A stretch of 63,639 bases of DNA, the filler included, from Octopus bimaculoides (taxonomy: Eukaryota), in NCBI RefSeq assembly GCF_001194135.2. It is 9 parts of 8 records of this genome, joined end to end, with 100 filler letters (N's around TTAATTAATTAA, not from the genome) between each part and the next. Parts side by side here need not be neighbours in the genome. Positions count along the whole stretch, not along the records: positions 1 to 16,086 come from NC_069006.1; positions 16,187 to 35,059 come from NC_068982.1; positions 35,160 to 37,307 come from NW_026345027.1; positions 37,408 to 39,846 come from NC_068981.1; positions 39,947 to 48,043 come from NC_068986.1; positions 48,144 to 59,019 come from NC_068985.1; 3 more parts are not named here. One strand, 5' to 3'. The notes under the pieces were generated by a model. It saw nothing but the letters and a program-made list of their open reading frames with translations. It was not told the origin of the DNA and did no database searches. This document shows, piece after piece, positions 13,855 to 58,520 of this stretch. The position numbers were made by a program, and so were the translations under genes. Each line of letters begins with the position of its first letter. Position 1 is the stretch's first letter.

Positions 13855-14040
13855 ACACACCACTTTTTCCCCCTTTTCTATCTGTTTTCTTTCCGCATTC
13901 TTTTTTGTAGAAGAGCGGAGTCTCGAAGCATCAAAGACTCTTCCATTTCCAAAGGGTCAAACTAATACACATTGTGTGTCGTTTCCTCATCTCCCTCCAT
14001 ATTTTCGGGATTATTTTGTGCAATTTTGAACCTTCTCTCT
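13855..14040 (+). mobile_element. Short non-coding repeat family E (hammerhead-like), degenerate copy
   Basis: TTTT-TTGTAGA-A-GAGC-GGAG-TCTC-GAA-GCAT-C-AAAGA..CAAACTAATACA; homologous to copies at 36.5, 37.8 and 58.4 kb. Confidence 0.65.
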
Positions 14041-14048
14041 CCCTATAT

Positions 14049-14275
14049 ATAGATAGATAGATAGATAGATAGATAGATAGATAGATAGATAGATAGATAG
14101 ATAGATAAATAGATAGATAGATAAATAGATAGATAGATAAATAGATAGATAGATAAATAGATAGATAGATAAATAGATAGATAGATAAATAGATAGATAG
14201 ATAAATAGATAGATAGATAGATAGATAGATAGATAGATAGATAGATAGATAGATAGATAGATAGATAGATAGATA
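14049..14275. repeat. (AGAT)n tract with periodic AAAT variants (16-bp higher-order unit)
   Basis: AGATAGATAGATAAAT is repeated about 8 times inside pure (AGAT)n. Confidence 0.95.
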
Positions 14276-14565
14276 GGCGCAGCTGTGCGGTAGAAAGTTT
14301 GCTTCACAACCACATGGTTCTAGGTTCAGCCCCACTACAAGACACCTTATGCAACTGTCTTCAACACTAGCTACGGGCCAACGTAACTAAGCCTTGTGAG
14401 TGGATTTGGTAGACGGAAACGTGACTTAGCGGTTCGGCAAAAGAGAGCGATAGAATGAGTAGCAGGTTTAGAAATATGTACTGAGGCTGATTCATTCGAC
14501 TATAAATTCTTTAAGGCGGTGCTCCAGCATGGCTGCAGTCTAATGACTGAAACGAATAAAAGATA
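14276..14565 (+). mobile_element. SINE family A/B, fused A+B copy lacking the internal microsatellite
   Basis: The A head (GGCGCAGCTGTGCGGTAG..GGTTCAGCCCCACT..GGATTTGGTAGACGGAAAC) joins directly to GTGACTTAGCGGTTCGGCAAAAG..GGCGGTGCTCCAGCATGGCTGCAGTC..GACTGAAAC. Confidence 0.8.
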
Positions 14566-15727
14566 TATATATATATATATATATATATATTTCTTTTAAT
14601 TGTTTCAGTCATTTGACCACGGCCATNNNNNNNNNNNNNNNNNNNNNNNNNNNNNNNNNNNNNNNNNNNNNNNNNNNNNNNNNNNNNNNNNNNNNNNNNN
14701 NNNNNNNNNNNNNNNNNNNNNNNNNNNNNNNNNNNNNNNNNNNNNNNNNNNNNNNNNNNNNNNNNNNNNNNNNNNNNNNNNNNNNNNNNNNNNNNNNNNN
14801 NNNNNNNNNNNNNNNNNNNNNNNNNNNNNNNNNNNNNNNNNNNNNNNNNNNNNNNNNNNNNNNNNNNNNNNNNNNNNNNNNNNNNNNNNNNNNNNNNNNN
14901 NNNNNNNNNNNNNNNNNNNNNNNNNNNNNNNNNNNNNNNNNNNNNNNNNNNNNNNNNNNNNNNNNNNNNNNNNNNNNNNNNNNNNNNNNNNNNNNNNNNN
15001 NNNNNNNNNNNNNNNNNNNNNNNNNNNNNNNNNNNNNNNNNNNNNNNNNNNNNNNNNNNNNNNNNNNNNNNNNNNNNNNNNNNNNNNNNNNNNNNNNNNN
15101 NNNNNNNNNNNNNNNNNNNNNNNNNNNNNNNNNNNNNNNNNNNNNNNNNNNNNNNNNNNNNNNNNNNNNNNNNNNNNNNNNNNNNNNNNNNNNNNNNNNN
15201 NNNNNNNNNNNNNNNNNNNNNNNNNNNNNNNNNNNNNNNNNNNNNNNNNNNNNNNNNNNNNNNNNNNNNNNNNNNNNNNNNNNNNNNNNNNNNNNNNNNN
15301 NNNNNNNNNNNNNNNNNNNNNNNNNNNNNNNNNNNNNNNNNNNNNNNNNNNNNNNNNNNNNNNNNNNNNNNNNNNNNNNNNNNNNNNNNNNNNNNNNNNN
15401 NNNNNNNNNNNNNNNNNNNNNNNNNNNNNNNNNNNNNNNNNNNNNNNNNNNNNNNNNNNNNNNNNNNNNNNNNNNNNNNNNNNNNNNNNNNNNNNNNNNN
15501 NNNNNNNNAAGAAGAAGAAGAAGAAGAAGAAGAAGAAGAAGAAGAAGAAGAAGAAGAAGAAGAAGAAGAAGAAGAAAAAGAAGATACAATGGGCAGAGTT
15601 GCATATAGCAAAACGGTTTATTTAGTCGTATGCTGGTGGTGGGTTAGCCATTACAGGCAGAACCATTGCTACCGAAATTCATCTGATCTAAGTTGTATTT
15701 GACCACCCAACGGAAATTTTGAGGGAG

Positions 15728-15899
15728 GGGTTAAGTCGATTACATCGACCCCAGTACTCCACTGGTATTTAATTAATCAACCACGAAAGGGATGACAAGC
15801 AAAGTCAACCTCAGCGGAATTTGAACTCAGAACGTAAAGACAGGCGAAATGCCGCTAAGCATTTCGCCCGACGTGCTAACGAGTCTGCCAGCTCGCCGC
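15728..15899 (-). mobile_element. SINE family C
   Basis: Reverse-complement match to the family C head and central domain. Confidence 0.85.
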
Positions 15900-15919
15900 T
15901 TTTCCTGGCTAGTTTAGAG

Positions 15920-55650: not shown

Positions 55651-56589
55651 AATATATATATATATAATACATACATGTGGATATGATATTTATACATATG
55701 ATGTATATATATATATAAGATAGATAGATAGATAGATAGATAGATGTATATATATACATATATACATATACATACATATATATATATATATATATATATA
55801 TATATATATATATNNNNNNNNNNNNNNNNNNNNNNNNNNNNNNNNNNNNNNNNNNNNNNNNNNNNNNNNNNNNNNNNNNNNNNNNNNNNNNNNNNNNNNN
55901 NNNNNNNNNNNNNNNNNNNNNNNNNNNNNNNNNNNNNNNNNNNNNNNNNNNNNNNNNNNNNNNNNNNNNNNNNNNNNNNNNNNNNNNNNNNNNNNNNNNN
56001 NNNNNNNNNNNNNNNNNNNNNNNNNNNNNNNNNNNNNNNNNNNNNNNNNNNNNNNNNNNNNNNNNNNNNNNNNNNNNNNNNNNNNNNNNNNNNNNNNNNN
56101 NNNNNNNNNNNNNNNNNNNNNNNNNNNNNNNNNNNNNNNNNNNNNNNNNNNNNNNNNNNNNNNNNNNNNNNNNNNNNNNNNNNNNNNNNNNNNNNNNNNN
56201 NNNNNNNNNNNNNNNNNNNNNNNNNNNNNNNNNNNNNNNNNNNNNNNNNNNNNNNNNNNNNNNNNNNNNNNNNNNNNNNNNNNNNNNNNNNNNNNNNNNN
56301 NNNNNNNNNNNNNNNNNNNNNNNNNNNNNNNNNNNNNNNNNNNNNNNNNNNNNNNNNNNNNNNNNNNNNNNNNNNNNNNNNNNNNNNNNNNNNNNNNNNN
56401 NNNNNNNNNNNNNNNNNNNNNNNNNNNNNNNNNNNNNNNNNATATATATATATATATATATATACATACACTCACACATATACACACACATACACACACA
56501 CATATATGCTTGTGTACGAAATATGGGAAATGGATTCATGGTATATGTACGAAGATAAAGAAAGTGACTCCATGACTGCCAAGAGATTT

Positions 56590-57295
56590 TACTTGTGGAA
56601 GATGTGAGAAAGGAGCTGGAGGACTAGTGGAACCAGTGTAAACGCTATGTGACGAGGTGGAAACGGTGAGAGGGCTTTGTTATTTGGGAGATGGGGCGGA
56701 TGTGGGTGGTGGATGTGAAGCACCTGTGACAGCAAGAGCGAGACTTGACTGCGTAGAGTTCATGGAATGTGGAGCGATATGATATGGGAAAAGATTCTCC
56801 TTGAAGATAAGAAGAAGGGTTTATCGGATTTGCGTGAGATTTCCAATGTTGTATGGCAGTGAGACATAGAGTCTGAGGGAAAGTGATATGGCAATTTTGA
56901 GAAGGTCCGAGAAACCAATGGTGAGAGCAATGTGTGGTTTCTAATTATTGGATAAAAGGATGGCCTGAGAACTTAAGGATGTTGGAGTTAGAGGAATAGG
57001 TGGAACAGCTGGCAAGGGCCAATGGTGTGCGGTGGGATGTACATCTTTTGAGGACGGATGAGAATCATGCTCTGAGGAGAGTGCTTCAGTTTAGAGTGAA
57101 TGAACCACCAAAGAGGACTTGGAAGGGACAGGTGGAGGAGGAGAGTAGGAGGGTTGGCTAGAGGAGGGAGGACACCCAGAACCGGGCAAGATGGCGAGAT
57201 GGTGTGAGAGCGGTTGCTGTAGGAGTAAGGTAGATCTAGCCACCCCCGTTAACGGGGATAAACCCGGATTCAAAATATTGGACAAGATGATGAAG
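56590..57295 (+). mobile_element. RTE-clade LINE, 3' fragment (RT thumb region and 3' UTR)
   Basis: EVETVRGLCYLGD..GGGCEAPVTARARL..RRVYRICVRFPMLYGSET*SLRES..ILRRSEKPMVRAMCG contains the RTE motifs YLG, LYGSETW and RxMCG; multiple stops. Confidence 0.88.
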
Positions 57296-57733
57296 GTGTA
57301 TATATATATATATATATATATATATGCCCCACCATGGCCGGAGTCAAATTACTGAAACATGTCAAAGAATAAAAGAATATGCGTGTGTGTGTGTGCGTTA
57401 TCAATGTTTTGGGATTTGTGTGTTCTTGTGTATGCATCTGATCGTTTCTTTATGTGTATAAGTATGTGATCATAAACGTAAATTCTACCATAAATGTGCT
57501 TCTATGTCGTTGCCGCGAGCAAATGCCCGAGTATAGGTGTAGATATATAGGAATATAGCTGTGACTATATTTCTGCCTATATATGTATTTAAATATATAT
57601 GTATGTGTGTTTGTGTGTATGTATATGTATATATTTATGTATATGTTTATATATATATATATATATATATATATATATATATATATATATATATATATAT
57701 ATATATATATACATATATATAATTATAAATATA

Positions 57734-57810
57734 CAGGGATCAGCATTGAGTTGCTTCCCCAACATACTGAACATTTAGAAATAGCAGTCAAAGAACTACT
57801 GATTCTAAAC
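57734..57810 (+). mobile_element. One-armed relative of the 50381 palindromic MITE
   Basis: TA-CAGGGATCAGCATTGAGTTGCTTCCCCAACATACTGAACATTTAGAAATAGCAGTCAAAGAACTACTGA corresponds to one arm plus the loop of the 50381 element. Confidence 0.8.
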
Positions 57811-58325
57811 TACAAATTTTTCTATATATATTTATATAGAAACACACATATATATATATATATGTTCGGTGGGGGTGTATATTAATGCCTGTGTTAGTAT
57901 ACGTTTGTGTTTTCTGTATGTATAAAAAGGTTATATCTACATGTCACATATTTCAGTGTGTGTATACAAGTGTGCACATGAATGTAAATAATTTAAATTT
58001 TATAGGACTTTCTACTTCTGTTAACATGTCTGTTTAATGAGTTTGTTATTTATATCCTCCCTTATGAGATTGATGCATTGCTGACCATAATTTATTCTGT
58101 CAGATATTTTGGGAGTGCATCCGACGAAACATATGTAGAAGAAATTCAAGATATAAATGGTTTAACAACATCCCGAGAGTGCCTCGCCTTCTTCAATTTT
58201 CCTACTTTTTACTAAATACGACTTACTATGCCGGAATTACATCGTGAGACACTTAAGGAACATTTAACTACCTTGTAATTATTCCACTGGAATTTTCCTA
58301 TACATATATATACATATACATATGT

Positions 58326-58520
58326 AGGGAGAATTCACAAAAACAAAAAAAACAAAAGACGAAGACAGGTGGTGTAGACAACAAGCAGATGTTTTAGGTC
58401 AACGCTCATGAAGTGAAAATGTCTTTAACGTTTCGAGCCTACGCTCTTCCACAGAAATGAGCAGAGAAAGAAACAAGGAGAGAAAATAATGTGTAGTGGC
58501 TAGCGATTTATCATGGCGGA
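58326..58520 (-). mobile_element. Repeat family E, best-preserved copy
   Basis: GGGAGAATTCAC..GACGAAGACAGGTGGTGTA..GTCTTTAACGTTTCGAGCCTACGCTCTTCCACAGAAA..GCGATTTATCATGGC; flanked by TA/CA microsatellites. Confidence 0.8.
58422..58459 (-). ncRNA. Minimal type-I hammerhead-like motif with CUGUGGA core
   Basis: CATTT / CTGTGGA-A / GAGC-GTAG-GCTC / GAA / ACGT / T / AAAGA. Confidence 0.5.

Follow-up and report, generated by a model that had tools for sequence, protein, structure and literature searches.

An abundant octopus repeat with a hammerhead layout and U at core position 6, possibly the end of a Penelope-type element that multiplied with a crippled ribozyme

Minimal hammerhead motifs have been documented in the pseudo-LTRs of metazoan Penelope elements by Cervera and de la Pena (PMC4209133), where they are mostly single and dispersed and are thought to derive from truncated elements. 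Four hallmarks were given: the sequence family, an extra nucleotide after A9, a G10.1–C11.1 pair and a palindromic 15.2–16.2. The octopus repeat described here shows all four and resembles these motifs in having a U-rich tract upstream, a short stem I, a core of 7 nt with one extra nucleotide, G10.1–C11.1, GAAA, a palindromic CG and UH. It differs at core position 6, which is U in the repeat and A in all 56 representatives of Fig. S3 of that study; the authors caution that the catalytic boxes were fixed in their search. No cephalopod is among the representatives, and no parent ORF was found here. Non-LTR retrozymes of animals (Cervera and de la Pena 2020, PMC7229834; Li, Clavereau and Pollet 2026, bioRxiv 10.64898/2026.07.22.740005) are also short and non-coding with a type-I hammerhead, are proposed to be moved by Penelope-like elements and occur as solo monomers too. 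What defines them is a tandem array whose units each carry a complete hammerhead, whereas copies of the repeat are solitary, of unequal length and non-canonical in the core.

A pyrimidine at position 6 in an otherwise canonical hammerhead has been described for phage Bcep176 (Perreault 2011, PMC3088659; Naghdi 2020, PMC7151607). That A6C case is a single phage sequence that has been assayed and is favoured by Mn2+, whereas here U6 occurs in an abundant animal repeat. Poseidon of Anolis carolinensis (Frangieh 2024, PMC11167929) resembles the repeat in its AT-rich targets and in insertion ends that lie some distance beyond the hammerhead cut, about 85–90 nt in Poseidon; its reverse transcription starts at +111 to +118 and the cut lies at +26. 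Its hammerhead is canonical, active and overlaps the ORF start, while no ORF was found at the motif of the repeat. Naiads, which include octopus families (Craig 2021, PMC8557442), use (TA)n targets and reach high copy numbers in invertebrates with no canonical hammerhead; the cephalopod ones are described in that paper as long-inactivated remnants, and the displayed 3′ end of Naiad_Obim is, by eye, unlike that of the repeat. In vitro the anole element has no need of cutting by its hammerhead, and a canonical hammerhead is missing from the thriving Naiads. Whether Penelope-like elements need theirs to cut has a natural test in a very abundant family with a fixed change at a strictly conserved core base. 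We found no A6U hammerhead family in print, in a search outside which Lunse, Weinberg and Breaker (2017) falls, and no published A6U cleavage rate.

The window, a stretch of 63,639 nucleotides (filler included) joined from nine parts of the Octopus bimaculoides assembly GCF_001194135.2, contains four copies of the repeat and no more by nhmmer --max and blastn (Table 1). This amounts to one copy per 14 kb. An earlier note on this DNA had placed them at 13.9 kb (+), 36.6 kb (+), 37.8 kb (−) and 58.4 kb (−); they were found there, and the four cores read as it had given them. The copies are 180–210 bp long, in agreement with the ~200 bp claimed, all are decayed with none intact, and they are 73–79% identical to each other in local blastn matches.

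Table 1. Copies of the U6 repeat and of a separate Penelope-like element in the window (cores written as DNA).
Feature	Coordinates	Strand	Details
Copy 1, decayed	13859..14043	+	core 13905-13911 TTGTAGA; H17 = C at 13932; 3′ end CTCTCCC, then TA/TAGA microsatellite
Copy 2, best preserved	36521..36733	+	core 36610-36616 CAGTTGA, then extra A; stem I 36605-09/36637-41; stem II 36618-28; GAAA 36629-32; H17 = U at 36636; 3′ end TTCTCCC; 5′ boundary may lie farther out, at ~36440
Repeated segment carried past the usual 3′ end by a minority of the family	36734..36790	+	possibly a tail, or the head of the next unit
Copy 3, most decayed	37688..37869	-	core 37817-37811 TTGTCGG; H17 = A at 37790
Copy 4	58327..58529	-	core 58454-58448 CTGTGGA (G7); H17 = U at 58427; 3′ end TTCTCCC, then TA-rich microsatellite
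Broken Penelope-like element (48-kb element)	48173..49795	-	RT to GIY-YIG, followed by a 3′ repeat whose last letters, CTCTCCA, abut (AT)n; own minimal hammerhead with A at position 6, H17 at 48290
Inverted, 5′-truncated copy of the 3′ repeat of the 48-kb element	49795..50064	+	hammerhead core CTGAAGA from 49944; H17 at 49970

The minimal type-I hammerhead layout claimed in the earlier note holds: when the 204-nt copy at 58 kb was shuffled 20,000 times with its dinucleotides kept, a CUGNNGA layout of this kind arose by chance twice. Stem II opens with G10.1–C11.1 after the extra nucleotide, has 4 bp and is worth −6.1 kcal/mol; stem I has 3–5 bp and stem III is ACGU, each perfect only in the better copies. 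G12, A13, A14 and the A15.1–U16.1 pair are present, GAAACGU being followed by U, C or A as H17, with G not listed. The stems had been idealised, however, since the exact TCTTT 5′ arm occurs in one copy of four (36.6 kb), the perfect GAGC/GCTC stem II in two and the ACGT palindrome in three, the 13.9-kb copy having GCAT. C3 is present in two of the four. Covariation, proposed as a check, did not appear: 80.6% of cells pair across the four copies and no pair is altered on both sides, a comparison of little power because the stems show no variant at 4% in the run contigs described below. Folding z-scores of element and motif are unremarkable (1.65, 0.31, −1.34 and −0.46). Rfam gave no match at E≤10 for the 36.6-kb copy; for the window at the same threshold, no hammerhead is among the matches listed (150 of 346), which are microsatellite-driven and nearly all to miRNA models.

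Position 6 is T in all four copies, and the claim that this is a family trait, for which four copies alone would be too few, found support in contigs from four public runs, which represent three organisms, aligned over the whole stretch (9389 contigs for X1, 6891 for X9, 3423 for X10 and 209 for X20). These counts are depth-weighted and reference-biased, and clipped variants can be missed. No letter besides U reaches 4% at position 6 (36613) in any of the four runs. The A4 of copy 2 proved to be a rare change, U making up 93–99% of the depth, so that the family core reads CUGUUGA, with A6 replaced by U and the other five fixed positions canonical. Contigs clipped at 36625 also have U6 as consensus in the three DNA-type runs (149, 136 and 73 contigs). 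A minor A6 subfamily may nevertheless exist: in X9 and X10, G7 is the leading letter among clipped contigs but does not appear in the 4% table, and A6 could escape notice in the same way.

The variation observed within the motif is at N7 and H17, which are the positions that a hammerhead leaves free. N7 is A, U, C or G across the four copies and G in the clipped consensus. C17 makes up 31%, 8%, 3% and 73% of the depth in the four runs, and A17 occurs in the clipped contigs as in copy 3. The higher share belongs to X20, which is only presumed RNA; that run is therefore silent on expression and its C17 share unreadable. One of 37 motif positions is variable against 19 of 94 in the 3′ flank (Fisher p = 0.013) and 21 of 139 when the 5′ flank is added (p = 0.049), counts that are biased by clipping near an indel of the reference. 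This low variation, with the changes at H17 and N7, fits a hammerhead-type constraint better than a dead motif.

The surroundings of the motif have the architecture of Penelope (EN+) elements: a hammerhead near the 3′ end, a fixed 3′ end, variable 5′ truncation and insertion into AT-rich or microsatellite DNA. The shared 3′ end lies 97, 100, 102 and 111 nt from H17 in the four copies, and the 5′ ends are ragged. Summed depth in X1 falls from 4.8 million at its peak to ~3,500 at 36490, in line with 5′ truncation. TA-rich microsatellite follows the 3′ end in three of the four copies and at clipped contig ends, and microsatellite lies upstream of all four, as the earlier note had said, which is modest evidence because the window is rich in microsatellites. 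A minority of contigs run on beyond the usual end into the repeated segment at 36734..36790: records 8 (X1), 31 and 32 (X9) and 24 (X20) span 36733 with at least 31 letters on each side and carry 6–19 other letters. The same architecture is seen in the RT and GIY-YIG element at 48–50 kb, which belongs to a different family with canonical A6 in both of its hammerhead copies; in the 48-kb element H17 is 117 nt from the end adjoining (AT)n. The Penelope link drawn in the earlier note thus gains from the 3′ end, the flanks, the ragged 5′ ends and this parallel. The tandem or dimeric copies that it had proposed to look for are absent from the window, where all four copies are solitary with no partial-tandem or inverted arrangement, contrary to the tandem complete hammerheads of retrozymes.

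A parent did not emerge from the searches. The flanks of the four copies gave no match to a Penelope protein, so that no RT plus GIY-YIG ORF joined to this end, as sought for an autonomous element sharing the ends, turned up there. The 3′ end of the repeat does not align with the 48-kb element, and translation of the repeat yielded no usable protein relative; P0004 was rejected as an unrelated repetitive protein. An RT fragment at 33.7–34.5 kb, 2 kb from copy 2, was rejected as parent because a Tc1-type transposase remnant and a gap lie between them and because it matches the 48–50 kb element at 88% identity across 126 nt. Three of four short probes had no match in the supplement of Craig et al. 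and the fourth hit one unrelated place; family-specific patterns had no match in viral or metagenome contigs.

Taken together, we lean slightly towards the repeat being a Penelope-type end whose amplification took place with a crippled hammerhead. That it is a pseudo-LTR, the 3′ end of a Penelope-type retroelement, is likely; it may be the heavily 5′-truncated end of an autonomous family instead of the non-autonomous element proposed in the earlier note. U6 is predicted to leave the hammerhead largely unable to cut itself. U6 would also take A15.1 as its partner, closing the core up as an inactive hairpin: predicted pairing between 6 and 15.1 in the two best copies is 0.96 and 0.46 with U and 0.00 with A. 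Published data suggest that changes at A6 sharply lower activity. The natural A6C has a kobs under 0.1 per min (PMC3088659) and very low activity in Mg2+ (PMC7151607), and in a type III hammerhead, changing one or two letters of the CUGA region gave low activity except for the C3:G8 swap (PMC9901934).

Under the crippled-hammerhead reading, a Penelope RT/GIY-YIG protein, own or borrowed from another family, would nick AT-rich DNA, reverse transcription would start on uncut RNA ~100 nt downstream of the hammerhead, and its early termination would give copies of 180–210 bp. A6U could have become fixed in the master copies because insertion presumably needs no cleavage and RNA left uncut retains the initiation region. 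In the anole element, insertion in vitro is unaffected by hammerhead mutants and uncut RNA is the main substrate (PMC11167929). The family probably kept multiplying after its ribozyme had been weakened or switched off, and the hammerhead fold might persist as a protein-binding or structural element. Between the two options of the earlier note, a ribozyme-bearing element with an atypical core or a frozen relic of one, published mutational data make an inactive motif likelier than a working ribozyme; inactivity is favoured, but not the freezing, as amplification of subfamilies went on with U6 in place.

The next reading in probability, which we hold as unlikely, is a natural A6U hammerhead that still works, slowly or conditionally, and is kept by selection on master copies across subfamilies. 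Its conditions might be a dimer through the ACGU palindrome, the protein of the element or Mn2+. Every other core position is canonical in the family state, Mn2+ rescues A6C (PMC7151607), the anole hammerhead cuts only with protein added (PMC11167929), and the motif variation seen is at N7 and H17, although the absence of G17 is weak evidence with only three states seen. Against it stand the solitary copies of the window, the absence of compensatory change among them, the off-pathway helix predicted for U6, and DNA copies that extend ~100 nt beyond the cut site. If the motif is dead, the family kept amplifying and the hammerhead shape was held for another reason; if it is active, the hammerhead consensus is widened by a variant held across subfamilies in three or more related animals. 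In both cases the U6 family escapes CUGANGA-based searches, whose descriptors fix A6.

A SINE or LINE 3′ end, with a hammerhead inherited or mimicked, is improbable. It would account for the lack of a link to an RT/GIY-YIG frame, and in Octopus vulgaris no orders are more abundant than SINEs and LINEs. However, the window yielded no tRNA gene call, the repeat has no tRNA or Rfam match, its shared 3′ end is without a poly(A) tail, and its layout agrees with the Penelope consensus in print, down to the U-rich tract upstream, and with that of the Penelope element in the same window.

It is very improbable that the core lies three bases later, with UUGAAGA as U3 to A9, A6 kept and CUG inserted before position 3: cores with U3 occur in nature, as do short insertions ahead of position 3 such as those of saltern hammerheads, but stem II would then cost +3.1 kcal/mol against −6.1, and where this register needs the conserved U4 the four copies have A, U, C and G. 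Equally hard to credit is that U6 is random decay or a minority state under A6 masters, given U6 in every window copy, in the aligned depth of four runs and in the clipped consensus of three, even if clipped variants can escape these counts and U6 hammerhead-like singletons in metagenomes are mostly decayed. The broad U6 pattern has at least 114 metagenome loci, and among the 114 listed six combine a stem II of at least 4 pairs with a stem I of at least 3, against a shuffled mean of 0.46. These loci were rejected as evidence of a fixed U6 elsewhere because three of the four inverted twins with a readable core have A6 (L063, L101 and L040; L017 has U6). Another metagenome locus, L098, had no Pfam match and by eye resembles a GIY-YIG end.

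A profile built on the four copies reported in the earlier note recovered the same four in the window and no more, which corresponds to one copy per 14 kb of called sequence in a microsatellite-rich stretch with an N content of 6,690. Local matches between the copies are 73-79% identical, and their cores (hammerhead positions 3-9, normally CUGANGA) read as had been stated, with T at position 6 in all four. With positions 6 and 7 left free, shuffling copy 4 20,000 times produced the hammerhead layout twice. Stem II is perfect in two of the copies and imperfect in the others, the ACGT palindrome is kept in three and C3 is present in two; no compensatory stem changes were observed among these four decayed copies. 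The U6 family is a real, abundant repeat carrying a Penelope-type minimal hammerhead with a family-wide A6U change, and it misses strict hammerhead membership by one defining base; any retrozyme status is at most putative.

Contigs of four of 24 listed public sequencing runs were aligned to 36490-36790 around copy 2 at 80% likeness, with variants listed from 4%: X1 (organism A, 9,389 contigs), X9 (organism B, 6,891), X10 (organism C, 3,423) and X20 (organism A, 209; RNA type only guessed). Core position 4, A in copy 2, is U in 93, 98, 99 and 99% of depth, and the family core is therefore CUGUUGA. At position 6, no letter besides U was listed at the 4% threshold in any of the four runs. Contigs clipped at the one-base loop deletion of copy 2, which are enriched in variants, still gave a U6 consensus (149, 136 and 73 contigs). 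The proposal that U6 is a family trait is thus borne out by aligned depth and clipped contigs alike, and U6 is clearly the dominant state. A minor A6 subfamily may exist within the family, since depth is not copy number, rare variants are lost from contigs, and G7, the leading base in clipped contigs of X9 and X10, is yet missing from the 4% table.

Leaving out four positions where copy 2 differs from nearly all contigs, variable positions in the 4% listing number 1 of 37 in the motif, against 2 of 45 in the upstream flank and 19 of 94 in the downstream one (p = 0.013 for motif versus downstream, 0.049 versus both flanks); this is only a hint of lower variability in the motif, because clipping near the indel cuts sensitivity there. 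The sole listed variable motif position is the cleavage-site residue H17, where C accounts for 31, 8, 3 and 73% of depth in the four runs; clipped contigs and copy 3 have A17, and G17 was not listed. N7 is A, U, C and G across the four window copies, so that the varying positions, H17 and N7, are the two that a hammerhead leaves free. As downstream variants are many and at intermediate share, we infer several master lineages, every one U6.

The copies (see the table) have a common 3' end, 97-111 nt beyond H17. A TA-rich microsatellite lies directly 3' of three copies and likewise at clipped contig ends, and a few contigs from other loci run beyond this end into 36734-36790. The 5' ends are unequal, each preceded by a microsatellite; copies 2 and 4 have sequence in common some 90 nt 5' of the core. 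Summed depth in X1 declines along the 5' side, being 4.8 million at its peak and about 3,500 at 36490, a fall for part of which divergence in a pyrimidine tract may account. The family behaves as a Penelope pseudo-LTR end.

Coordinates of features in the window
Feature	Position	Strand	Remark
U6 family, copy 1	13859..14043	+	
U6 family, copy 2	36521..36733	+	
U6 family, copy 3	37688..37869	-	
U6 family, copy 4	58327..58529	-	
Broken Penelope-like element	48.2-49.8 kb (from 48173)	-	matches two RT + GIY-YIG proteins
Inverted, 5'-truncated copy of that element's own 3' repeat	49795-50064		precedes the element
Penelope-like RT fragment	33769-34526	-	RVT_1, E 2.4e-11
Tc1/mariner transposase remnant	35170-36300	-	HTH_Tnp_Tc3_2, E 1.6e-13
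370-bp repeats	59177-59546, 59769-60132		86% identical; (AAT)n precedes each
RT-like fragment	60235-61302		weak zf-RVT match
Short repeat family 1	4035-4207, 32484-32672, 36954-37140, 42935-43134, 47204-47377, 55003-55491, 63450-63639		
Short repeat family 2	5640-5810, 15710-16006, 40616-41764, 49001-49163		tandem cluster at 40.6-41.8 kb
TTAA-repeat filler (example)	37352-37363		

The 48-50 kb element offers a comparison in the same window. Its relatives carry a cysteine-rich linker between RT and GIY-YIG, it is broken up by a short repeat (family 2), and its inverted truncated terminal repeat is an arrangement described for Penelope-like elements (PMC8557442). Each of its two terminal repeats contains a minimal hammerhead whose position 6 is A, and in the minus copy H17 lies 117 nt from the end adjoining (AT)n. 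The element's hammerhead stems bear no relation to the stems of the U6 family, nor do the ends of the two align; it has the same architecture but is of another family. The second RT fragment shares 88% identity with the 49.7-kb copy across 126 nt, and for one RT fragment in the window the closest named protein is P0003 of Octopus bimaculoides (80% identity over 29% of query).

In published work, a natural A6C hammerhead cleaves at <0.1 per min (PMC3088659), and an exhaustive pairwise mutational scan on a type III hammerhead gave low activity for CUGA-region changes, the C3:G8 swap excepted (PMC9901934). In an anole element, reverse transcription initiates at an internal site of the RNA, 3' of the hammerhead; mutating the hammerhead leaves insertion normal, and hammerhead cleavage requires protein (PMC11167929). 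U6 family copies extend about 100 nt past the predicted cut site, so an uncut or circular template would be needed. We therefore lean towards a Penelope-type end whose masters would have lost most cleavage and kept amplifying, with such RNA as the putative template; it ranks above a conditionally active variant, then a non-Penelope origin, and last a shifted register and plain decay, these two level. A conditionally active A6U variant is a tentative second. Mn2+ restores activity to the natural A6C hammerhead (PMC7151607). No measured A6U rate was found in the literature searched. Predicted U6-A15.1 pairing is 0.96 in one and 0.46 in the other of the two best copies, against 0.00 with A, which is only suggestive of a misfold, as the A versions misfold too, in other ways.

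A non-Penelope origin of the repeat is improbable. No parent element was found: the flanks of the copies gave no Penelope protein match, translations of the repeat had no relatives in protein searches, and by eye it bears no resemblance to the published Naiad_Obim end (PMC8557442). The family may be non-autonomous; alternatively, its copies may be truncated ends of an autonomous element. A shifted core register, with stem II at +3.1 versus -6.1 kcal/mol, is very unlikely.

Plain decay is an equally remote explanation of U6 in a family where it dominates every run. In a metagenome pattern scan, at least 114 loci have a U6 layout; among the 114 matches listed, six have real stems against 0.46 by chance, and inverted twins with a readable core have A6 in three of four. 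Isolated U6 motifs are therefore usually a product of decay, and the family-wide U6 is the unusual part of the repeat. Well-paired minimal layouts with U6 occur at metagenome loci L061:301-331, L030:301-333 (at the midpoint of a long inverted repeat), L090, L011 and L098:301-336, each probably a lone, decayed copy of an animal Penelope-type end; L052, L058 and L059, picked for U6, are related loci of one repeat family with U6 and A7.

Aligned published minimal hammerheads have A6 in 56 of 56, with no cephalopod source (PMC4209133). No report of an A6U hammerhead family emerged from the literature searched, including a search for hammerhead with octopus (bioRxiv 10.64898/2026.07.22.740005, PMC6765202, PMC7229834, PMC13282606, PMC8967140, PMC11014351, PMC11662667); the only A6U match concerns twister, CUGUUGA matches are unrelated by title, and Lunse, Weinberg and Breaker 2017 and repeat databases may list the family or variant.

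Among other repeats, a Tc1/mariner remnant was seen, and the 370-bp repeats with the RT-like fragment beside them presumably resemble a Dong/R4-type element. Several N runs have the same short TTAA-repeat filler at their centre, which suggests an artefact of assembly. Two abundant SINE-like families of about 170 bp each are also present.
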